A stretch of 48,490 bases of DNA from sequence record OZ035751.1. One strand, 5' to 3'. Below the pieces are notes generated by a model. That model was not told where the DNA came from. It saw only the letters and a list, made by a program, of their open reading frames with translations, and did no database searches. How positions within the stretch are numbered: position 1 is the stretch's first letter; every line of letters starts with the position of its first letter. The position numbers were made by a program, and so were the translations under genes. The stretch is from Lambdavirus PDP110P1. Positions 7,485 to 48,488 of the stretch are shown one piece after another.

Positions 7485-7927
7485 TGGCGATCGTTGTCTT
7501 TGATGTTGCCGCATTTCGTGAGCGTTATCCGGAGTTCGATGCCGTAAGTAATACGCTACTTAATGCGTACTTCACGGAGGCAACGATTTATCTGAATAAC
7601 ACGGACAGCAGCCCGGTAAAAGATATCTCTATCCGGGCTCTTTTCCTGAACATGCTGGTTGCGCACATTGCGGCGCTGAATTCAGGCGTAAACGGCGAAA
7701 AGGCTTCTGGTCTGGTTGGCCGTGTGGCAAGCGCATCGGAGGGGTCAGTGTCAGTATCAGCTGACGCAGGGCCCTCAAGCGAAAACTCCTGGTGGTATAA
7801 GCAGACTACTTACGGGTCAGCTTACTGGGAGGCCACAAAGCCTTACAGGACTGGTTTTTATGTCCCGGGCTCATCCCCTTCAATGTACCCGGGCCATTAT
7901 AATCGTCGCTCATTCATCCGGAGGTAG
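7484..7927 (+). CDS. putative head-tail adaptor protein
   Basis: 147-aa ORF, start overlaps upstream stop; role from gene order. Confidence 0.35.
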
Positions 7928-7929
7928 CT

Positions 7930-8493
7930 ATGGATGGAATGTCAGGCGGCGATAAGCTTATGGAGCACCTGCAGTCTATCGCAAAGGGTCTGTCCTCTGG
8001 CGATGATTTGAAGGTGGGTTTCCTTGAGGGGGCTAAGTACCCAGACGGGACGCCGGTAGCACTTGTGGCAGCCACCAACGAATTTGGCGGCACTGTAAAA
8101 ATCCCGGCGCATACCCGGGATTTGAACTTTTACGTTCGCCGTGACGGCGTTTCGCGCTTCGCAAAGCCATCAAAGGCCAATTTCGCGAAGTCAGTAATGA
8201 TACCCGAGCATATCGTTACGATCCCATCCCGGCCGTACTTCAGGAAGACCATTTCTGAACATGGTCCGGAGTGGGGCGGAGAGCTCGGGAAACTCATGAA
8301 GGCAAACGATTTTGACGCCCGCAAAAGCCTGGCGCTGATGGGGGAGCGGATCAAGGGGCAGATTCAGTCGTCAATCATCGCCTTTTCTGAGCCGCCGAAC
8401 GCAAAAAGCACGGTCGACAAAAAAGGGTTTAATGACCCGTTAATAGACTCGGCCCACATGCTGAACTCGGTCGACTACGAGGTGAAAGAGTGA
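7930..8493 (+). CDS. putative head completion/neck protein
   Basis: 187-aa ORF in head-tail joining region. Confidence 0.35.
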   Translation: MDGMSGGDKLMEHLQSIAKGLSSGDDLKVGFLEGAKYPDGTPVALVAATNEFGGTVKIPAHTRDLNFYVRRDGVSRFAKPSKANFAKSVMIPEHIVTIPSRPYFRKTISEHGPEWGGELGKLMKANDFDARKSLALMGERIKGQIQSSIIAFSEPPNAKSTVDKKGFNDPLIDSAHMLNSVDYEVKE

Positions 8494-8858
8494 ATCTTCA
8501 TTCCATAGTGCGAGGCGCCATTAGTGCGGTTAATCCTCGCGTCGAGGCGCAGATTTACCGCTCGATCGGACCAATCAAAAACCCGGATTACTCGACCTCT
8601 CCAGGTTTCGCGCCGCCGGTAACGATGATGGTGCAAAAGCAGGCGCTGAGTCAGGCTGATATCAGGCACATGGATAACATGAACATCCAGGGTGTGCTGG
8701 TCAGTATCTGGACGGATGGCAACTGGTGTGGGATTAACAGGGAGCGGCAGCAGGGCGGCGATAAGTTCGTTATCGGCGATGAAACATGGCTGGTTGTGGA
8801 TGTGCCTGAAATCTGGCCGGACTGGACGAGGGTTATCGCATGTCAACAATTGACGTAG
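8490..8858 (+). CDS. putative neck protein
   Basis: 122-aa ORF, ATGA-type overlap with neighbour. Confidence 0.35.
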   Translation: MNLHSIVRGAISAVNPRVEAQIYRSIGPIKNPDYSTSPGFAPPVTMMVQKQALSQADIRHMDNMNIQGVLVSIWTDGNWCGINRERQQGGDKFVIGDETWLVVDVPEIWPDWTRVIACQQLT

Positions 8859-9391
8859 GCCTGCAGGTCACTGAAAGCGATCTGTTTAAGGCGACTGGCG
8901 ATTTCCTTTCTGTCCTCTTCCCGGATGCAGAGATCACGCAGACTCAGCAAAATCAGACCCCCATGCCGAAAGGCGGTTTCATTACCATGACTCCGCTTTT
9001 TCTGACTGACCTCTCAACCAGTGCTGTCAATTACGAGTATGACGGTGTGAGTGATTACGGGCGGGCAGAACTTCGCCGCGTTGATGAATGGCAATGTCAG
9101 CTCGATTTCTACGGAGATCAGGCACAAAACAATGCCACCATCTTTTCGCGCATCGCCCGCTCCGAATTCGCATGTACCTGGTTCAGGGAAAACGCGAATG
9201 TCCTGGTTCCGATTTATTCCGGCCCCCCGCGGCAAACCTCGATGATCAACGGCGAGAAGCAGTGGGAATCCCGCTGGACGCTTGAATTCCACGCAAACCC
9301 GCTGATTGTCGTCAGCGTTCCTCAGCAGTTTATGACAGGCGCAGATGTGATATCGCAGCCAGTCGACGTGAGATTTCCTCCGGAGAAATAA
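8840..9391 (+). CDS. putative tail completion protein
   Basis: 183-aa ORF preceding the sheath-like gene. Confidence 0.35.
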   Translation: MSTIDVGLQVTESDLFKATGDFLSVLFPDAEITQTQQNQTPMPKGGFITMTPLFLTDLSTSAVNYEYDGVSDYGRAELRRVDEWQCQLDFYGDQAQNNATIFSRIARSEFACTWFRENANVLVPIYSGPPRQTSMINGEKQWESRWTLEFHANPLIVVSVPQQFMTGADVISQPVDVRFPPEK

Positions 9392-9394
9392 TAA

Positions 9395-10876
9395 ATGGCA
9401 ATTTCGCTATCAAAAATCGCCCAGATGCTTCCCGGCGTACTGAAGGCGACAGGGACAGCTATTGATCTCAATGGCCTGTTCCTGACCGACAGCGCATACG
9501 CGCCGGTTGGTGCAGTACCCTCATTTTCCAGTGCGGATGAGGTAAAGGCGTACTTCGGCAGCGCGTCGATTGAGTACACCGCCGCGGTGCTGTATTTCGC
9601 CGCATTCACCGGTAAAACACAGATGCCTGGCAAGCTGTATTTTAGCCGATTCAATACCGCAGCAGTGGCGGCATTCCTTCGTTCCGGATCGCACGCAGCG
9701 ACCACGCTGGCACAGCTCAAGTTGCTTTCTGGTACGTTGACTCTGACAGTTGACGGCACGGAGGAGACTTCTGCGGCTATCAACCTCAGCGGCGCCACCA
9801 GTTTTGATAATGCGGCAGAGCTGATTGAAACCGGCATTGGCTCCTCGGTTGTAGTGACCTGGGATAGCGTGCTGAAGAAATTCATCATCACCTCTGCCAC
9901 CACGGGCGTGGATAGCACCATTACCTTTGCCGATGAAGGTACGCTTGCTACGGGTCTGAAACTGACCGAAGCGACCGGCGCGGTGATCTCTCAGGGTGCG
10001 GCGCCGGCAGTGGTTGACGATATCTTTACTGCCATTCTGGCCAAAGAGCAGGACTGGGTAACATTCTCCACGACGTTCGCTGTCACCAAAGACCAGGCTA
10101 ATGCGTTTGCGCTCTGGACAAACAGCCAGAACCACCGCTTTGCCTATGTCCCATGGGACGCATCAGGAACGGCAATCGTGGCGGGCAGCTCGAATGCACT
10201 GGTGTACGACATCATCAACACCTACGCCTATAACGACACCTGCCCGGTGTATGGTTACCCGAACCACGCAGCAAACGCGATGGGGTTTGTGGCTGCGCTG
10301 AACTTCACGCAGGCCAATGGTCGCTGTTCGCTGAATGGTCGTCAGGTGTCCGGCCTGCTGCCGATGATCAGTAACGATACTGATTACGAGGCGGCTAAGG
10401 CCAACGGCTATAACTTCTACGGCAACTATGCCTCGAATGCGGTCGAAACCAACCAGTGGGCGCCCGGCTCTATTACCGGTGATTACGCTTGGCTTGACGC
10501 CTGGGCGGGTCAGGTATGGGTAAATGCTCAGCTTCAGGCGGCTCTTGTTGCGCTGTTCCAGCAGGCGAGCAATCTGCCCTTCGCAGCAGCCGGGAAAGCT
10601 CGTATTGAGTCGTGCATGAAGCCGACCATTGAGCAATTCAGGGCGTGGGGTGGCATGACGGCAGGAACCGATCTTGACCAGTCGCAGATCGACCAGATTA
10701 ACGCCATCGCTGGTGTCGATGTTACGGATTCGCTTATGGCTGAAGGTTATTACGTCTACATCGGCCCGTTCACCGCGGCAATGCGCGCCGCGCGTACCAA
10801 GCCAACGGTTTACTTCTGGTACACCGACGGCGGGATCATCCAGGGTATCACCGTTAACAGCACGGAGGTGCAGTAA
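9395..10876 (+). CDS. tail sheath protein (putative)
   Basis: 493 aa followed by a 147-aa tube-like gene, chaperone and tape measure: the gene order of a contractile tail. Confidence 0.5.
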   Translation: MAISLSKIAQMLPGVLKATGTAIDLNGLFLTDSAYAPVGAVPSFSSADEVKAYFGSASIEYTAAVLYFAAFTGKTQMPGKLYFSRFNTAAVAAFLRSGSHAATTLAQLKLLSGTLTLTVDGTEETSAAINLSGATSFDNAAELIETGIGSSVVVTWDSVLKKFIITSATTGVDSTITFADEGTLATGLKLTEATGAVISQGAAPAVVDDIFTAILAKEQDWVTFSTTFAVTKDQANAFALWTNSQNHRFAYVPWDASGTAIVAGSSNALVYDIINTYAYNDTCPVYGYPNHAANAMGFVAALNFTQANGRCSLNGRQVSGLLPMISNDTDYEAAKANGYNFYGNYASNAVETNQWAPGSITGDYAWLDAWAGQVWVNAQLQAALVALFQQASNLPFAAAGKARIESCMKPTIEQFRAWGGMTAGTDLDQSQIDQINAIAGVDVTDSLMAEGYYVYIGPFTAAMRAARTKPTVYFWYTDGGIIQGITVNSTEVQ

Positions 10877-25985: not shown

Positions 25986-27017
25986 ATGGCGCTGAAGCTA
26001 TTAGCCAATAATAACGCAAAGAGTGTTCTCGCTGCGGGTATTAGCGCGTCCGCTACCGTTATTACCGTGGGTACTGGAGCTGGGTCTTTATTCCCGTCCC
26101 CTGTATCTGGGCAGAGTTATTTCAAATTAACGATAACCGACGCGGCCACGAAAACAATTTCTGAAATTATGCACGTCACGTCTGTATCCGGTGACGTGAT
26201 GACAGTAATTCGTGGTCAGGAAGGAACTACGGCACGCGTATGGTCAACGAATGACATTGTCGCGAATTTAATGACCGCCGGATCATTGTTGTCGTTCCTG
26301 CAGATCAGCAATAACCTGTCAGAAATTAAAGATGCCGGTGAGGATGCGATAAATGAAGCCCGTTATAACCTCGGAATATCTGATTCCTCTGGTTTTGTCG
26401 GGCGTTCACTTGGCGCTCCAAAAGCTTTCTATGCAAACGGAACCTATACGCGATCTCCTCTGGCCCGTTATGCAAAAGTAACGTTGACCGGTGCCGGTGG
26501 CGGCGGTGGCGGCTGCCAGGCCTCCAACAATACAGAAACCTTCTCCGGTGCTGGCGGCGGCGCGGGCGCGACCATTATCGTATGGGTTGACCTGTCTGCT
26601 GCCAGTTCTTATGCGATTACTGTCGGCAAGGGTGGTAAGGGCGGAGTTGGCGCAGTAAGTGGTGCGGATGGTGGGGCCACCTCGTTTGCCAGCCTGTTCT
26701 CAGCTCCTGGCGGGAAAGGAGGAGTGAAGTCAGGCGTGTCCAATACCGCCGGCGGCGCCGGAGGTACGGCGGCGACCGGAGATATCAGGATCAACGGTGG
26801 TACCGGCTCAGATGGACAGACAGGCTCAAGCCTTCTGACGGGCAACGGCGGGGCGTCGTATTTTGGCGGCGGTGGCCGGGCGGGTTCTCAGGCCGGTATT
26901 GCTGGCGCAGCTCCCGGATCCGGTGGTGGTGGCGCGTATGACCTTGGGTTTACCGGTACGGCATTTACCGGTGGTGATGGTGCTACTGGCATGGCGATCG
27001 TGGAAGAATTCGCGTAA
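25986..27017 (+). CDS. tail fibre protein with glycine-rich C-terminal domain
   Basis: 343 aa; C-terminal ~170 aa paralogous to C-terminus of 20910-22205. Confidence 0.55.
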   Translation: MALKLLANNNAKSVLAAGISASATVITVGTGAGSLFPSPVSGQSYFKLTITDAATKTISEIMHVTSVSGDVMTVIRGQEGTTARVWSTNDIVANLMTAGSLLSFLQISNNLSEIKDAGEDAINEARYNLGISDSSGFVGRSLGAPKAFYANGTYTRSPLARYAKVTLTGAGGGGGGCQASNNTETFSGAGGGAGATIIVWVDLSAASSYAITVGKGGKGGVGAVSGADGGATSFASLFSAPGGKGGVKSGVSNTAGGAGGTAATGDIRINGGTGSDGQTGSSLLTGNGGASYFGGGGRAGSQAGIAGAAPGSGGGGAYDLGFTGTAFTGGDGATGMAIVEEFA

Positions 27018-27159: not shown

Positions 27160-27420
27160 ACCTTGCGCTAATGCTCTGTTACAGGTCACTAATACCATCT
27201 AAGTGGTTGATTCATAGTGACTGGATATGTTGTGTTTTGTAGTATTATGCAGTCTATTATTTAGACTAAATCTTTCATAACATATTGATATTTACAGTGT
27301 TTTCTGTTTATTGTTCAGCTTTTTTATACTAAGTTGGCATTATAAAAAAGCATTGCTTATCAATTTGTTGCAACGAACAGGTCACTATCAGTCAAAATAA
27401 AATCATTATTTGATTTCAAT
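27160..27420. other. attP: attP (lambda-type; core 27318-27332)
   Basis: lambda core GCTTTTTTATACTAA with flanking lambda arm sequence (…ACAGGTCACTA…), adjacent to int. Confidence 0.85.
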
Positions 27421-28476
27421 TTTGTCCCACTCCCTGCCTCTGTCATCACGATACTGTGATGCCATGGTGTCCGACTTATGCCCGAGAAGATGTTGAGCAA
27501 ATTTATCGCTTATCTGCTTCTCATAGAGTCTTGCAGACAAACTGCGCAACTCGTGAAAGGTTGGCGGATCCCCTTCGAAGGAGAGACCTGATGCTTTTCG
27601 TGCGCGCATAAAATACCTTGATACTGTGCCGGATGAAAGCGGTTCACGACGAGTAGATGCAATTATGGTTTCTCCGCCAAGAATCTTTTTGCATTTATCA
27701 AGTGTTTCCTTCATTGATATCCCGAGAGCATCAACATGCAATGTTGTTGGGATAGCAATTTTTACGCCTGTTTTGCTTTGCTCGACATAAAGATATCCAT
27801 CTACGATATCAGACCACTTCATTTCGCATAAATCACCAACTCGCTGCCCGGTAACAACAGCCAGTTCCATTGCAAGTCTAAGCCAACATGGTGATGATTC
27901 TGCTGCTTGATAAATTTTCAGGTATTCGTCAGCCGTAAGTCTTGATCTCCTTACCTCTGATTTTGCAGCGCGAGTGGCTGCGACCGGGTTTGTTGTTATA
28001 TGGCCTTCAGCTATAGCCTCTCGGAATGCATCGCTCAGTGTTGATCTGATTAACTTGGCTGATGCCGCCTTGCCCTCGTCTATGTATCCATTGAGCATTG
28101 CCGCAATTTCTTTTGTGGTGATGTCTTCAAGTGGAGCATCAGGCAGACCCCTCCTTATTGCTTTAATTTTGCTCATGTAATTTATGAGTGTCTTCTGCTT
28201 GATTCCTCTGCTGGCCAGGATTTTTTCGTAGCGATCAAGCCATGAATGTAACGTAACGGAATTATCACTGTTGATTCTCGCTGTCAGAGGCTTGTGTTTG
28301 TGTCCTGAAAATAACTCAATGTTGGCCTGTATAGCTTCAGTGATTGCGATTCGCCTGTCTCGGCCTAATCCAAACTCTTTACCCGTCCTTGGGTCCCTGT
28401 AGCAGTAATATCCATTGTTTCTTATATAAAGGTTAGGTGGTAAATCCCGGCGCTCATGACTTCGCCTTCTTCCCAT
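27406..28476 (-). CDS. int: integrase (lambda Int, tyrosine recombinase)
   Basis: 356-aa protein MGRRRSHERRDLPPNLYIRNNGYYCYRDPRTGKEF…, recognised as lambda Int. Confidence 0.95.
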   Translation of the reverse strand: MGRRRSHERRDLPPNLYIRNNGYYCYRDPRTGKEFGLGRDRRIAITEAIQANIELFSGHKHKPLTARINSDNSVTLHSWLDRYEKILASRGIKQKTLINYMSKIKAIRRGLPDAPLEDITTKEIAAMLNGYIDEGKAASAKLIRSTLSDAFREAIAEGHITTNPVAATRAAKSEVRRSRLTADEYLKIYQAAESSPCWLRLAMELAVVTGQRVGDLCEMKWSDIVDGYLYVEQSKTGVKIAIPTTLHVDALGISMKETLDKCKKILGGETIIASTRREPLSSGTVSRYFMRARKASGLSFEGDPPTFHELRSLSARLYEKQISDKFAQHLLGHKSDTMASQYRDDRGREWDKIEIK

Positions 28477-28672
28477 TTCTGATCCTCTTCAAAAGGCTAC
28501 CTGTTACTGGTCGATTTAAGTCAACCTTTACCGCTGATTCGTGGAACAGATACTCTCTTCCATCCTTAACCGGAGGAGGGAATATCCTGCACTCGCGTAC
28601 CCATCGACGAACTGTTTCAAGGCTTCTTGGGCGTCGCTGGCGAGCGTTCCACTCCTGAAGTGTCAAGTACAT
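28454..28672 (-). CDS. xis: excisionase Xis
   Basis: 72 aa MYLTLQEWNARQRRPRSLETVRRWVRECRIFPP…; overlaps int start as in lambda. Confidence 0.9.
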   Translation of the reverse strand: MYLTLQEWNARQRRPRSLETVRRWVRECRIFPPPVKDGREYLFHESAVKVDLNRPVTGSLLKRIRNGKKAKS

Positions 28673-28757
28673 CGCAAAGTCTCCGCAATTACTCGCAAGG
28701 GAACGAGTAGTGGTTGATTTTTCTCCAACAAAAAAGGAGCCGAAGCTCCTTTGATGA

Positions 28758-29381
28758 TTAAAATTCGAATTGTCTCGCCCGAAGGCTTTTCAACATTGGT
28801 CTTGCCCGTTCGAAAACGGCGCTTGTCTGGTCAAGTCGTGTCGCCTCCCTGAGCAGTACATCTCTGTTTTTCGTCACCGCATAGAAGGTTTCAAACGCAA
28901 TGTCATACAGCTTACTCGCGTATGATGAGTTAAGTTCCTTCATTATCGGGTACAGGAGTTTGCAGATGTCCTGTGCATTCTCCATCTGTACCTGCATGTA
29001 GCAGAGGAGGATGATTTCCTCGTCTGTGAATTGCTGCGCTGGTTGCATGCTGCGAAGTTTCTTTTCGCACTCGATGAAGTATCGGCGTATCTGGCGGCCT
29101 TTTTCGTTGCGCTCCACCATAGCCAGTTCTTTGGCTGTATCGAGGGTGAGGTGGTAGTCCTTGCGGTTGTGACCGCCTCTACCAGATGTTTGCTTTCCCA
29201 AATTGGAAAGCAAAATATAGTCTTGATTTTCAATGAATTTGTATTCTGAAATGCGATTTGTAATCCATGCCGCAAACACCTTTTTCACGCCTAAAAAAGC
29301 ATGCAGATCGCGGGCATTGCAGAGTAGGGCTGTTTCGTTGGCGATAGTGCCGTTGAATACGGGGATGAGTTGACTGGTCAT
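28758..29381 (-). CDS. antirepressor-like protein (AntA/ORF6N-type N-terminal domain)
   Basis: 207 aa from ATG 29381 with RBS AAAGGAGG; N-terminal domain resembles the phage antirepressor/Bro-N family. Confidence 0.5.
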   Translation of the reverse strand: MTSQLIPVFNGTIANETALLCNARDLHAFLGVKKVFAAWITNRISEYKFIENQDYILLSNLGKQTSGRGGHNRKDYHLTLDTAKELAMVERNEKGRQIRRYFIECEKKLRSMQPAQQFTDEEIILLCYMQVQMENAQDICKLLYPIMKELNSSYASKLYDIAFETFYAVTKNRDVLLREATRLDQTSAVFERARPMLKSLRARQFEF

Positions 29382-29736
29382 GATGACCTCCTTTGAAGTT
29401 TTAGTTAGCAATCACCAGTTAGTGGCTGGTGATCGGGTGTCAACTAGAGCCTTCAAAGATGCTCCGGGCATATTCCCCTTGCGGGTATTGTATTACGCCT
29501 CTCCACCCGACCTTTGTACGGATGTGACTATGCCAAATTGCAGGCATAAAAAAGCCGCAAAGCTATCGGGTGCGGATGACCGCTTTGAAGTTCTAGTGCG
29601 GTCAGTATGCGATAGCTCTGGCGGATTTGTCAAATCATGTGGTCTTTATCTTGCTGTAAGCCGCGCCATTCGGGATTTTCCCCAAATTTGGGGGAAACTA
29701 TCTGCGAAGTATTCACCTTTGACGGCAAGTTTCAGG

Positions 29737-30021
29737 TTAGCCACGACCTTCCTCCTTTGGCTTGTGAATTTGTATCGTCATGCCGCTTTGAGTGGTGACT
29801 ACAATGACAGAACCAGGCTGAAGGCTGTTAAGATTGAATGCTTCGTAAAACGAATCCAATGCCAGTGCTTTTTTATTCTTTCGGTCCCACCAACGCCATC
29901 CCTTGCTACAGGCTACACTGACAATCCACTGTCCACTCCTGTAAGCCATATAAAACCAGATGAGCAAAACCTGAAGGAAGACTATCCAGTCAATAATCGT
30001 ATATTTCGCGAAGGAGTCCAT
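29737..30021 (-). CDS. small membrane protein
   Basis: 94 aa; N-terminal hydrophobic helix; ATGA overlap with upstream gene. Confidence 0.4.
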   Translation of the reverse strand: MDSFAKYTIIDWIVFLQVLLIWFYMAYRSGQWIVSVACSKGWRWWDRKNKKALALDSFYEAFNLNSLQPGSVIVVTTQSGMTIQIHKPKEEGRG

Positions 30022-30935
30022 TACTTCATCTCCTGCGGCGGTTCCGGTAGCGGCATCCAGTGAGTTGCTTGCTCAATACCATTACCCGGCTTAATCGTTG
30101 CATCTCCGCGCCGAAAGGTGCTTCCGGTATAGCGTGCGGAGCATATTAGCGGTTCAACCAGAGAGCTATCGAAATTCACCGAAATAAGCACGTTCTGGCC
30201 ATTTTCAGGCATTCGATCACTACAGCTTATCCAACTATCCGGAGTTCCCGGAGAGTTGCCATTTACATCGAAGTTTGGCTCTGCGTCCTGAACCAGGAGG
30301 ATGTAACCATTCTTGGCTGTATCAAGTTCTAACGCCTCGGTGACGGTGCCGAAATAGCGATTACCTAAATCAGCATCACAAGTGCTTACATCAATGGAAA
30401 CTTCCATGCCTTCGATTAATTCTGGCAAGTTGTAAGTTTGGCTTACAGGTTGGCTACCCTGAAGCATGGCAGCGTGGCAGGCTTCATCAACCATAGCTTC
30501 TACGTTTTCGAGAAGTACGTAACTGTACTGCTGCCCACTAACCCATTCTTTTCTGCGAGGTAATGCGCGTGGGTCCGCTACAATGGTTCGCAAACGTTCC
30601 AGAACAGCAGGCACTACCGGCTCTACTGCCAACTGACTGGCATATTTGTTAATGGTAACGATAAGCTCTTGCTCGGCCTCATCCAGACAATCACCGATAC
30701 CTCGCCTGTCACCGTCAAAATCATCGAAATCGGCACGAATCCTGGCAACCTCCCGGATTGCGGACAACACTTCACCAGGAATAAGCGGAGAGTTGCCCGA
30801 TAGTGCATTCTGCTCCAGTGATGCCAGTGCAATCCGTGCCAGCTCACGAATCTCACCGCCGTCTATATCGTCAATGTCATCACGGCCAGAAATGTTAGCC
30901 AGCCATTGCAGTCGCTCTTTGGTAATAGTGGTCAT
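30021..30935 (-). CDS. DUF551-domain protein
   Basis: 304 aa; RBS AAGGAG; C-terminal motif …ATHWMPLPEPP resembling DUF551. Confidence 0.5.
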   Translation of the reverse strand: MTTITKERLQWLANISGRDDIDDIDGGEIRELARIALASLEQNALSGNSPLIPGEVLSAIREVARIRADFDDFDGDRRGIGDCLDEAEQELIVTINKYASQLAVEPVVPAVLERLRTIVADPRALPRRKEWVSGQQYSYVLLENVEAMVDEACHAAMLQGSQPVSQTYNLPELIEGMEVSIDVSTCDADLGNRYFGTVTEALELDTAKNGYILLVQDAEPNFDVNGNSPGTPDSWISCSDRMPENGQNVLISVNFDSSLVEPLICSARYTGSTFRRGDATIKPGNGIEQATHWMPLPEPPQEMK

Positions 30936-39499: not shown

Positions 39500-40399
39500 A
39501 TGACAAATACAGCAAAAATACTCAACTTCTGCAGAGGTAACTTTGCCAAACAGGAGCGTAATGTGGCAGATCTCGATGATGGTTACGCCAGACTATCAAA
39601 TATGCTGCTTGAGGCTTATTCAGGCGCAGATCTGACCAAGCGACAGTTTAAAGTGCTGCTTGCCATTCTGCGTAAAACCTATGGGTGGAATAAACCAATG
39701 GACAGAATCACCGATTCTCAACTTAGCGAGATTACAAAGTTACCCGTCAAACGGTGCAATGAAGCCAAGTTAGAACTCGTCAGAATGAATATTATCAAGC
39801 AGCAATGCGGCATGTTTGGACCAAATAAAAACATCTCAGAATGGTGCATCCCTCAAAACGAGGGAAAATCCCTTAAAACGAGGGATAAAACATCCCTCAA
39901 ATTGGGGGATTGCTATCCCTCAAAACAGGGGGACACAAAAGACACTATTACAAAAGAAAAAAGAAAAGATTATTCGTCAGAGAATTCTGGCAAATCCTCT
40001 GACCAGCCAGAAAACGACCTTTCTGTGGTGAAACCGGATGCTGCAATTCAGAGCGGCAGCAAGTGGGGGACAGCAGAAGACCTGACCGCCGCAGAGTGGA
40101 TGTTTGACATGGTGAAGACTATCGCACCATCAGCCAGAAAACCGAATTTTGCTGGGTGGGCTAACGATATCCGCCTGATGCGTGAACGTGACGGACGTAA
40201 CCACCGCGACATGTGCGTGCTGTTCCGCTGGGCATGCCAGGACAACTTCTGGTCCGGTAACGTGCTTAGCCCGGCCAAACTCCGCGACAAGTGGACCCAA
40301 CTCGAAATCAACCGTAACAAGCAACAGGCTGGCGTGACAGCAGGAAAATCAAAACTCGACCTGACAAACACTGACTGGATTTACGGGGTGGATTTATGA
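39500..40399 (+). CDS. O: replication initiator O
   Basis: 299 aa MTNTAKILNF…, recognised as lambda O; contains the ori iterons. Confidence 0.95.
   Translation: MTNTAKILNFCRGNFAKQERNVADLDDGYARLSNMLLEAYSGADLTKRQFKVLLAILRKTYGWNKPMDRITDSQLSEITKLPVKRCNEAKLELVRMNIIKQQCGMFGPNKNISEWCIPQNEGKSLKTRDKTSLKLGDCYPSKQGDTKDTITKEKRKDYSSENSGKSSDQPENDLSVVKPDAAIQSGSKWGTAEDLTAAEWMFDMVKTIAPSARKPNFAGWANDIRLMRERDGRNHRDMCVLFRWACQDNFWSGNVLSPAKLRDKWTQLEINRNKQQAGVTAGKSKLDLTNTDWIYGVDL
39846..39980 (+). repeat. lambda-type origin: iterons plus AT-rich region
   Basis: four direct repeats of the TCCCTCAAAACGAGGGA type followed by an A/T-rich stretch, inside O. Confidence 0.85.
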
Positions 40400-47228: not shown

Positions 47229-47852
47229 TATGTTTAGTTCTGCAGACACACCGATCCCCGGAATGGAGGTTCCGTTCACGTGGCAGGCTAGCCTGGAGTT
47301 AAACGCGAAGCTTTACTCTGCGCTGGGGCAGTGCAATCTGGATAAGGCGGGGATTAGAAAGGTAGAGGAAGAACGCCGTAGTACTTTGCAATGATGCTGC
47401 AGATTAGGATGACGATGGCATTAATTGCCGGGGCAAACGGTGCCAATGTATTTAGTACTTCTAACATGTATACCTCCTTGGTTGTGAATGGTTGTCAGCG
47501 CTTCTCTTGTGTAACTTATTCCTCCTGTGGCTGTTCCTACTCGTTTAACATTAAAGGCCTTGAACGGTTATTTTTCGTTCTATACTCGCCACTATTGAGT
47601 GTCCAACGTGTTGGACAAGCCCTTCCTAATAGTGAGTCTTAATAGCTTCTGAGCAGTCTTTGTCTCTTATAAGAGACAAGCACATCCATGCCGGCAGACA
47701 AAGGTAGGTACCGAAAGAGGCGTTCAATAATTTTATAAAGTTCTGCAAATGATGCCTTTTTGTATCATTGACAGAGTTTTATGTGAGTTTACGGGTGCTG
47801 CGGTGTCGAAATTACCGAAATGGCATCAAAGCAACCCAGAGGATTATTCTGT

Positions 47853-48488
47853 ATGGCTGGAAATGACAATCGCAGACCATACCCTCCCGTCAACTTCACT
47901 GGCGAAAACTGGCTGCCTTATACCCGGCTGATCCCTGCTGCCGAAATCGGCGAATGGGTAAATCAGAACATCCTCTCCGAAGATGGCCGAATCCATAACC
48001 CTGACCATGCGCACTTGCTCGATGCTGATGTCGCGTTCATGTGGGCCTCTGGCTCATTCGCCAAAAGCGGCCGCATTGTGCTGGGCCAGTGTGAGCAGGT
48101 AATGATGCGCGCCGGTGGCTGGCAGAAAGCCAGAATGGAGCAGCAGATGCATGAATGGTTCGGACGCATACCGAAGTTCATCATCACCCTGGCTGCTGAC
48201 TACTGCGAGCAATGCAACGATCTGGAGTTCTGCGCACTGGTAGAGCATGAGCTTTACCACATCGCCCAGGCTACCGATGACTATGGCGCGCCGAAATTCA
48301 ACAAAGAGACCGGTATGCCGGTGCTCAAACTTCGCGGCCACGACGTCGAGGAATTCGTCGGAGTTGTCCGGCGTTACGGCGCCAGCAAAGACGTGCAGGA
48401 AATGGTGGATGCGGCGAACAGGCCGGCGGAGGTTGCTCATATCGATGTTGCCAGAGCGTGTGGGACGTGCATGCTGAAACTGGCTTAA
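47853..48488 (+). CDS. HExxH-motif protein (putative metallopeptidase) upstream of the packaging genes
   Basis: ~211 aa from ATG 47853 (RBS GAGGA); motif HELYH; track ORF starts at 47820. Confidence 0.45.
   Translation: MAGNDNRRPYPPVNFTGENWLPYTRLIPAAEIGEWVNQNILSEDGRIHNPDHAHLLDADVAFMWASGSFAKSGRIVLGQCEQVMMRAGGWQKARMEQQMHEWFGRIPKFIITLAADYCEQCNDLEFCALVEHELYHIAQATDDYGAPKFNKETGMPVLKLRGHDVEEFVGVVRRYGASKDVQEMVDAANRPAEVAHIDVARACGTCMLKLA

Follow-up and report, generated by a model that had tools for sequence, protein, structure and literature searches.

The window analysed here, a stretch of 48,490 nucleotides (record OZ035751.1), is a lambdoid phage genome or prophage with its CI/Cro/O/P region at 38-41 kb. 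Directly beside xis, on the leftward strand, it carries ant, a gene for an antirepressor-like protein, and between this gene and its candidate promoter lies an RNA of the sRNA-Xcc1 family (Rfam RF02221). Short sequences complementary to the two variable segments of this RNA occur both in the leader of the transcript and at the ribosome-binding site of ant. We interpret the arrangement as a self-contained cassette similar to immI (c4-icd-ant), in which an antisense RNA, and not a repressor bound to a palindromic operator, would block translation of Ant; we put the probability of this interpretation at roughly 0.72. The features of the unit, in the order of transcription, are as follows.

29604..29633, minus strand: candidate ant promoter, TTGACA (29633-29628), 18-nt spacer, CATACT (29609-29604), 10/12 match, predicted start near 29597
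29592..29597, minus strand: a1-like leader copy ACUAGA, complementary to UCUAGU of the RNA
29583..29590, minus strand: b1 leader copy CUUCAAAG, exact complement of the hairpin-2 loop
29548..29575, minus strand: putative leader terminator or attenuator, CCGCA, 11-nt loop, UGCGG, C, then U6
29423..29512, minus strand: c4-like antisense RNA of the sRNA-Xcc1 family, between the promoter and the ribosome-binding site
29512-29504 with 29439-29431, minus strand: closing stem of the RNA
29460-29451, minus strand: hairpin-2 specificity loop AUCUUUGAAG
29458-29451, minus strand: pairing segment of this loop, CUUUGAAG, exact complement of CUUCAAAG
29445-29440, minus strand: junction AGUUGA, following hairpin 2
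29412..29432, minus strand: hairpin 3, UCACCAG-CCACUAA-CUGGUGA (-9.4 kcal/mol), between the RNA and the downstream targets and including an RCCA-like tail
29402..29407, minus strand: a2-like target UAACUA, complementary to the junction UAGUUG with one G-U pair; weak in this subgroup
29391..29398, minus strand: b2-like target CUUCAAAG, perfect complement of the hairpin-2 loop, overlapping the 5' half of the Shine-Dalgarno (SD) sequence and running into AAAGGAGG
29387..29394, minus strand: SD sequence AAAGGAGG, 5 nt before the ATG at 29381, read from the sequence
28758..29381, minus strand: ant, 207 amino acids, ATG at 29381 and stop at 28758, with an N-terminal AntA and a C-terminal P22_AR_C domain

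A cmscan of the whole window against Rfam gave the RNA as its sole match (29512-29423, minus strand); it is contained in the 216-nt leader of ant, which the sequence-only reading had overlooked. The alignment covers model positions 1-87 of 87 and scores 65.4 bits (E=1e-11), above the gathering score of 53, which makes the RNA a member of RF02221. An exact-pattern scan with the invariant core ATACAAnACCCGnAAGGGGAA found at least 120 loci in viral contigs and at least 120 in contigs representing one genome per species; about 175 distinct members among the matches listed (87 viral loci and 88 genome loci) were compared, and the family counts given below come from the matches listed. The genome matches include loci of Pseudomonas, Xanthomonas, Haemophilus, Pasteurella, Neisseria, Bartonella, Azospirillum and Desulfovibrio, and further genome loci with an exact motif match occur in Bacteroidota, Acidobacteriota, Planctomycetota, Verrucomicrobiota and Gemmatimonadota. 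The Bacteroidota, Acidobacteriota and Planctomycetota loci were checked with the family model and scored 30-56 bits, below the proteobacterial loci. A covariance model of our own, built from 97 sequences and used to re-align 109 matches, scores the window RNA at 69.9 bits.

Sequence variation in the family supports the predicted structure. In an alignment of 99 distinct sequences, which was fitted to the model, 21 of the 23 base pairs show changes on both sides, and paired cells amount to 74.9% compared to 62.3% in shuffles. The covariation score in the same fitted alignment is 0.337 (0.154 shuffled), a value reached by none of 500 shuffles and lying above all slid controls. Most of the RNA is conserved, and the hypervariable parts are the hairpin-2 loop and the junction that follows it. 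The hairpin-1 motif AUACAAnACCCGnAAGGGGAA (29494-29472 in the window), which includes AUACAA...ACCCGnAAGGGGAA, is nearly invariant and lies outside the predicted target pairing; as AUACAAnACCCGnAAGGGGAA was an exact search pattern, its invariance within the set is by construction, and the Rfam consensus independently indicates that it is conserved. The motif may serve in protein binding, in a tertiary contact or as a processing signal. An equivalent of hairpin 3 is visible by eye in many family members (uncounted).

Members of this family have been detected as RNA. In X. campestris 8004, sRNA-Xcc1 is a discrete species of 88 nt, as established by Northern blotting and end mapping (PMC2996969). 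For enterohaemorrhagic E. coli (EHEC) EDL933 grown in lysogeny broth (LB), a single sRNA-Xcc1 entry was reported with 40,293 transcriptome reads, corresponding to 25,609 reads per kilobase per million (RPKM) versus 6,763 for CsrB, and with a ribosome coverage of 0.02 (PMC5331693). In the EDL933 assembly our model finds a family member at 1394608-1394714 (minus strand), about 30 nt upstream of EDL933_RS07045. There is a difference of about 2.5 kb between the assemblies, and at the coordinates given in that paper the one used here has hok/sok but no member of the family.

The two hypervariable segments have complements on both sides of the RNA. In the window, loop segment CUUUGAAG pairs with CUUCAAAGGAGG, so that the loop faces b2 at the ribosome-binding site, while the junction is complementary to a2. 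To quantify this in the family, each locus was searched for the longest stretch of its own flanks (150 nt downstream and 160 nt upstream, at least 7 nt for the loop) that is perfectly complementary to the loop or the junction, with the flanks of all other loci as control. A loop complement was found downstream in 55% of the viral and 43% of the genome loci, compared to 3.0% and 1.5% with foreign flanks, and upstream in 62% and 48% (control 3.1% and 2.2%). The junction behaved in the same way, with complements downstream in 56% of the viral and 41% of the genome loci (control 7.4% and 5.8%) and upstream in 64% and 76% (control 7.2% and 8.7%). The position of the loop target is narrowly defined: in both sets 7-12 nt separate its 3' end from the start codon (mode at -9), and the target overlaps the 5' part of the SD sequence. 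In 78 of 86 viral loci, the distance from the RNA to the first SD-preceded open reading frame (ORF) is 25-77 nt.

The clearest individual evidence comes from the concerted change of three short sites among the nearest relatives of the window cassette. Elsewhere these cassettes share about 88-100% identity, while the three sites change together:

Window cassette: b1 CUUCAAAG, loop b' CUUUGAAG, b2 CUUCAAAG
933W-type cassette (PA4, L067): b1 CAAAUAAG, loop b' CUUAUUUG, b2 CAAAUAAG
L039 cassette: b1 CACAAAAG, loop b' CUUUUGUG, b2 CACAAAAG
L017 cassette: b1 CACAUAG, loop b' CUAUGUG, b2 CACAUAG

The genes that follow the RNA are of few types. Among 77 downstream ORFs of the viral set, Pfam identified P22_AR_C in 14, KilA-N in 12, Bro-N in 10, P22_AR_N in 9, AntA in 8, Phage_pRha in 6 and ORF6N in 5; the remaining ORFs gave no Pfam match, and many of them encode about 80 amino acids. 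In the genome set (72 ORFs) the matches were Rha (10), Bro-N (7), P22_AR_N (5), SymE_toxin (5), ORF6N (3), KilA-N (2), P22_AR_C (2), AntA (1) and a few helix-turn-helix (HTH) domains. These gene types agree with published remarks on the location of sRNA-Xcc1, which precedes an ORF6N gene in APSE phages and symE in integron cassettes of Xanthomonas. The window conforms to this pattern by gene type, with the putative antirepressor gene of the AntA/P22_AR_C class following 49 nt past the closing stem. The SymE-toxin ORFs, 5 of the 72 in the genome set, are small and follow the RNA in Xanthomonas loci (L126, L130, L158 and others). This suggests that in integron cassettes an RNA of the same design acts as antitoxin within a type I-like toxin-antitoxin pair.

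Upstream of the RNA, the usual order in the family begins with a sigma-70-like promoter and a small hairpin whose loop contains a1; b1, GCGG... and a hairpin followed by a T run come next, and a spacer of 40-75 nt leads to the RNA. The window has a leader of this type: it carries a1, which is weak in its subgroup, then b1 and the hairpin with U6. In this subgroup the a1 hairpin is reduced and b1 begins 13 nt after the -10 hexamer. A consensus scan of 28300-30300 found a single sigma-70-like site, with 2.5 expected, so the pattern alone is not significant. The position of the site is informative, however, in comparison: 52/64 viral and 49/75 genomic members have a sigma-70-like site with its -10 hexamer ending 11-16 nt 5' of a1, compared to only 3/64 and 1/75 in a control interval. 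Since the position of the promoter-like site is kept across the family, the candidate ant promoter is a conserved part of the unit. Its hexamers are also maintained in three diverged copies, including the two tandem units of Lyz12581Vzw (TTGACA/TGACGA and CATACT/TATATT/TATACT). The sequence-only reading had placed a promoter here, correctly for the -35 hexamer TTGACA at 29633-29628; the -10 hexamer that it proposed, GCATAC after a 17-nt spacer, is shifted by one base and lacks the invariant final T.

The putative terminator in the leader is supported by comparison as well. Its stem shows a compensatory change (CCGCA/UGCGG in the window vs CCAAC/GUUGG in Lyz12581Vzw), and a run of at least 5 T occurs 3' of b1 in 71 of 85 family members. 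A terminator scan did not report this hairpin with U6 because of its 11-nt loop, and the support is thus comparative. Termination at this point would give a leader RNA of about 50 nt with a1 and b1, similar to IsrK or c4-a1b1. The leader, folded as a 231-nt segment, has a much more stable predicted fold than shuffled sequences (z = -4.6), and the minimum-free-energy fold includes an intramolecular pairing of the loop with b1.

The protein encoded by ant is homologous to P22 Ant-type domains, with Pfam matches to AntA (E=2e-26) and P22_AR_C (E=6e-9, 36.3 bits with a cut-off of 22.4). It shares 78% amino acid identity with EDL933_RS07045, which is annotated as 'phage antirepressor Ant'. A search of PDB sequences with Ant found no homologue. 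The sequence-only reading had recognized an Ant-like gene with a good ribosome-binding site adjoining the integration module, and the ORF, the Pfam domains, AAAGGAGG and the xis and int genes all bear this out. Two elements of another phage were considered as counterparts and rejected. The d_ant gene linked to the 24B_1 RNA of phage Phi24B is located downstream of R and is a different gene, and so is the experimentally studied ant of Phi24B, which is found in the pR operon before qut.

On this basis we propose the following mechanism. Transcription would start near 29597 at the sigma-70 promoter TTGACA-18-CATACT. The first ca. 50 nt would contain the decoy sequences a1 and b1 and end in the hairpin with U6, where some transcripts would stop. 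Read-through transcripts would contain the sRNA-Xcc1-family RNA of about 88 nt (29512-29423), which, by analogy with c4 (released by RNase P in P1), may be excised from the leader and accumulate; the similarity of its 5' flank (A/U)AU-G and its RCC tail to the corresponding parts of c4 is no more than supporting for release by RNase P. Loop CUUUGAAG and junction UAGUUG would pair with CUUCAAAG and UAACUA in the same transcript or in trans. If the direction of control is as in P1/P7, pairing at the SD sequence would block ribosome loading, and no Ant would be made in the lysogen. Synthesis of Ant would be expected once the RNA is outrun or titrated by a burst of transcription from pL or the ant promoter. 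It would also be expected with an excess of the short leader RNA, a titration role suggested by IsrK, and when the cassette of an incoming phage has a different loop specificity. By the same analogy with P1/P7, the hypervariable loop and its targets would act as the immunity specificity. The Ant protein could then inactivate CI of this phage (38082-38726), although it may instead bind that of another prophage. The earlier idea that ant provides a second switch input which senses other resident elements was a reasonable one.

Several observations weigh against this proposal. The a1 and a2 sites are only 5-6 nt long in the window subgroup, weaker than in most family members. For the window taken alone, the predicted duplex of the variable segment with the initiation region (-19.1 kcal/mol) is only marginally better than that of shuffled sequences (-13.7 +/- 3.1 kcal/mol, p about 0.05), and the case is therefore based mainly on comparative covariation. 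The Rfam models for C4 (RF01695), c4-a1b1 (RF03163) and isrK (RF01394) gave no match to 29300-29800 at E<=1, and neither did our own family model to P1 c4. The role of the AntA and P22_AR_C protein as an antirepressor is suggested by family names only. Pairing at the SD sequence could in principle activate instead of repress, as the short IsrK RNA does. Finally, the published EDL933 RNA would be the copy upstream of ant if the offset of ca. 2.5 kb, which also fits the neighboring hok/sok, applies to it.

Among the alternative explanations, the one that survives best is that the RNA is an independent trans-acting small RNA (sRNA) for host or virulence genes and that its position before ant is incidental. 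This is how sRNA-Xcc1 was described: trans-acting, under control of HrpG/HrpX and with predicted host or plant targets, and its abundance in EDL933 would fit such a role. However, the published trans targets are computational predictions, and the explanation does not account for the co-variation of each copy with sites ca. 10-45 nt downstream and ca. 70-120 nt upstream of it, for the location of the loop target on the SD sequence of the next gene, or for the narrow set of downstream genes. We consider it unlikely.

A leader that acts purely in cis, as an attenuator, thermosensor or ligand sensor and without a diffusible RNA, is somewhat less probable still. The RNA is indeed located in a 5' leader, preceded by a terminator-like hairpin and followed by another hairpin, and the loop-b1 pairing in the minimum-free-energy fold would suit such a device. 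On the other hand, hypervariable specificity segments are unexpected in a ligand sensor, a discrete 88-nt species exists in Xanthomonas, and the read density in EDL933 is far above the level of an mRNA leader and is not accompanied by ribosomes. Furthermore, the c4 RNAs from the immI regions of P1 and P7 have the same layout and act in trans.

The third alternative concerns the sequences upstream of the promoter, which are best considered together with the genes that surround the cassette. These neighboring features are:

25986-27017, plus strand: 343-amino-acid ORF whose long C-terminal half is repetitive and rich in glycine, located immediately before int on the other side of the attachment region
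27406-28476, minus strand: int, lambda-type, adjoining xis
28454-28672, minus strand: xis (Pfam Exc, E=4e-41), directly downstream of ant on the same strand
28733..28752, minus strand: strong intrinsic terminator found by terminator scan, 6 nt past the ant stop codon, AAAGGAGC-UUCG-GCUCCUUU followed by a U run
29646..29744, minus strand: remnant ORF of 32 amino acids, GTG at 29744 and TAA at 29646, containing the palindrome in its non-homologous tail
29680..29693, no strand assigned: exact 14-bp palindrome CCCCAAATTTGGGG, probably not functional
29737-30021, minus strand: DUF4752 gene, upstream of ant across a gap of 355 bp
30021-30935, minus strand: DUF551 gene, upstream of the DUF4752 gene
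39850-39930, plus strand: lambda-type ori iterons, repeats of ATCCCTCAAAACGAGGGA, inside the O gene (39500-40399)
47663-47676: TCTCTTATAAGAGA, the only other perfect 14-bp palindrome in the window

As the int, xis, ant, DUF4752 and DUF551 genes all read leftward, the ant region is also on the route of transcription from pL. Homology to the ant cassettes of Shiga toxin (Stx) phages begins at 28730, just past the terminator, and homology to the 933W-type cassettes ends at 29633/4, which is the first base (5' edge) of the -35 hexamer. In 933W-type phages the cassette is found at the prophage end and does not adjoin xis, whereas PA28-type phages keep the context seen in the window. In PA28 and Lyz12581Vzw, a segment of about 70 bp that includes a near-palindrome travels with the promoter. 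In the best reading, 28730-29705 forms a self-contained cassette with horizontal mobility that was inserted into the leftward early operon, where the DUF4752 gene and xis flank it. With its own promoter and its own terminator (28752-28733), ant is indeed the independent unit that had been suspected from the sequence. The 343-amino-acid glycine-rich ORF beyond int looks like a tail-fibre or side-fibre protein.

The remnant ORF marks the upstream recombination joint. Its first 13 amino acids match the N-terminus of a 94-amino-acid ASCH-domain protein (12/13 identical), and the remainder is unrelated. The ASCH-domain relatives come from P22-like and lambdoid phages. The ORF has a perfect ribosome-binding site (AAAGGAGG, then GTG) and overlaps the stop codon of the DUF4752 gene; the inserted ant cassette has left it behind as a truncated gene.

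The palindrome lies in the tail of this remnant. The sequence-only reading reported it as perfect at 29680-29693, which is exact, and proposed it as an operator; in this role it did not hold up. Two perfect 14-bp palindromes occur in the window and shuffled sequences give 2.98 +/- 1.7, so their number is at chance level. PA28 and Lyz12581Vzw read CCCCAAATCTGGGG at this position, which is imperfect, and in four other close relatives of the cassette (933W-type, L067, L039 and L017) the sequence 5' of the -35 hexamer is unrelated. No related copies of the palindrome were found across the window, the sole near match (2 mismatches) being in the ori iterons of the O gene, and no similar site was found in the cI-cro interval. 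The palindrome begins 46 bp upstream of the -35 hexamer and thus forms no dyad at the promoter hexamers, is not conserved and is neither repeated nor similar to operators of this phage. The cognate repressor that the sequence-only reading had envisaged has no candidate gene in the cassette either. We therefore reject the palindrome as an operator and regard it as probably a chance feature. In L246 (phage PA4, 933W-type) an inverted repeat (TTAACGCAA, 15 nt, TTGCGTTAA) is present about 50-85 nt upstream of the ant promoter, which may be coincidence or a dyad supplied by the context.

Mainly transcriptional control by a dedicated protein repressor that binds CCCCAAATTTGGGG is accordingly the least probable of the three alternatives: an exact palindrome is present 5' of a plausible promoter, the near-palindrome segment moves with that promoter in PA28 and Lyz12581Vzw, and the P1 immI promoter P51a has a C1 operator (record annotation), but at 46 bp from the -35 hexamer a bound protein would be too far away to occlude RNA polymerase, and the chance frequency of the palindrome, its imperfection or replacement in the close relatives, its location in the tail of a truncated ASCH gene, the lack of similar sites beyond the ori iterons and in the cI-cro interval and the lack of a repressor gene in the cassette all speak against it.

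Cassettes with this putative antisense control of ant also occur in multiple copies. In Lyz12581Vzw (NC_049917; L001, 1190-3423) three consecutive genes are annotated as 'antirepressor'. Two of these ant-like genes have their own promoter, leader and sRNA-Xcc1 RNA (1860-1945 and 2396-2484) with different loop specificities, forming a tandem array. Locus L073 (IMGVR_UViG_2595698223_000002, 7569-9505) has five tandem sRNA-Xcc1 units at a spacing of about 381 bp, each followed by an ORF of about 127 amino acids without Pfam match. Five sRNA-Xcc1 copies with the same period of ca. 381 bp were described in a genomic island of Xylella fastidiosa (PMC12189769). Among 5,426 complete E. coli genomes, 382 (about 7%) contain the window-type leader (29382-29640), with no annotated feature underneath among the matches listed. 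Many of the carriers are Stx phages.

With regard to its wider meaning, we lean towards the view that RF02221 is a very widespread class of c4-like immunity RNAs and not a Xanthomonas virulence sRNA. The class would extend over the Proteobacteria, with weaker-scoring exact motif matches in Bacteroidota, Acidobacteriota, Planctomycetota and other phyla, and in it two reprogrammable segments and a leader decoy would gate the next gene, be it antirepressor-like or SymE. In E. coli the loop specificity (CUUCAAAG in the window, CAAAUAAG in 933W-type Stx phages) would, on the same view, determine which lambdoid phages, whether co-resident or incoming, silence Ant of one another, and it could influence prophage induction and Shiga toxin release. 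RNA-specified immunity over an antirepressor would add an input to Stx-phage induction beyond RecA-mediated cleavage of CI and would provide a route of cross-talk between co-resident prophages. An unannotated intergenic stretch is in this way connected to a concrete and testable mechanism. RF02221 would be reinterpreted with the neighboring gene as its target, following the logic of P1 c4, and the c4 paradigm of the 1990s would be extended to lambdoid phages, integron cassettes and many phyla. The natural pairs of loop and target might also serve as a ready set of orthogonal translational repressors.

The closest known counterpart of the window cassette is immI of P1 and P7. The P1 record is annotated with an operator Oc4, promoters P2c4 and P1c4, a1 (48255-61), b1 (48269-76), the c4 RNA (48343-48419), a2 (48423-29), b2 (48452-59) and icd from 48470, followed by ant1/ant2. 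Segment b' of P1 is the hairpin-2 loop UCACUAAC, which pairs with GUUAGUGA beside GAGG, and segment a' is the junction CUGUCAA, which pairs with UUGACAG. As in the window, a promoter, a1, b1 and a hairpin with a T run precede an RNA of ca. 80-90 nt, with a2 and b2 following at the ribosome-binding site of the next gene; in P1, b2 ends 11 nt before icd. The leaders of P1 and the window can be aligned as b1-GCGG-N4-CCGCA-loop-UGCGG-U run. Both systems have an antirepressor product encoded downstream (putatively so in the window), and the variable recognition sequences, which provide the immunity specificity in P1 and P7, would do so in the window as well. Unlike P1, the window has no icd-like upstream ORF, so that the RNA would target the ribosome-binding site of ant directly, and there is no recognizable repressor operator at the promoter. 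The Ant protein of the window is of the AntA plus P22_AR_C type, whereas P1 encodes Ant1/Ant2.

The RNAs themselves share a topology. The Rfam C4 consensus combines a closing stem with two hairpins and a junction of 7 nt; its tail reads CCaCC and its 5' flank uuAU-GG. Both c4 and sRNA-Xcc1 have the closing stem, the two hairpins and a single-stranded junction of 6-7 nt, are flanked by (A/U)AU-G on the 5' side and an RCC tail on the 3' side, and use the same parts for recognition, with the hairpin-2 loop as b' and the junction as a'. They differ in hairpin 1, which is longer in sRNA-Xcc1 and carries the nearly invariant AUACAAnACCCGnAAGGGGAA, a motif that c4 does not have. In the Rfam copy used, clan CL00128 includes C4 and c4-a1b1, while sRNA-Xcc1 is in no clan. 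The window RNA would thus have the mode of action of c4, but it should not be assigned to RF01695, and we do not claim sequence homology.

The leader RNA finds a parallel in IsrK of prophage Gifsy-1, where a terminated leader RNA activates translation of its own read-through transcript isrK-orf45-anrP, 140-fold in the case of anrP (PMC4825925). The Rfam isrK model also gives a sub-threshold match to the a1b1 leader of P1 (35.1 bits, gathering score 50). Similar to the window, Gifsy-1 has a promoter-proximal leader with an intrinsic terminator, and its read-through mRNA encodes an antirepressor-like protein (AnrP). This mRNA is translationally silent, and the short leader RNA acts on it in trans (PMC4825925). 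The difference is that IsrK activates, whereas the leader of the window would act as a decoy; a c4-like RNA is not discussed in PMC4825925. For the integron-encoded sRNA-Xcc1 of X. campestris, published as a virulence-associated, trans-acting sRNA, the comparative analysis assigns the target to the adjacent gene. Among the papers found, none links sRNA-Xcc1 to c4-type control or to antirepressors.

In the immI region of P22, ant is controlled by Mnt, Arc and the antisense RNA sar and is silent in lysogens. Both P22 and the window thus have an antirepressor-type protein with a P22_AR_C domain and a dedicated immunity region that includes an antisense RNA. In P22, however, sar is transcribed from the opposite strand of the ant leader, and there are two protein repressors with operators, neither of which is seen in the window. 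As a genetic unit, the cassette is comparable to the morons of lambdoid phages, with its own promoter and terminator, sharp homology boundaries (28730 and 29633/29705) and a varying position in the genome. It differs from the morons in that it contains a regulatory RNA circuit and in that its cargo would be a component of the switch instead of a gene for lysogenic conversion.

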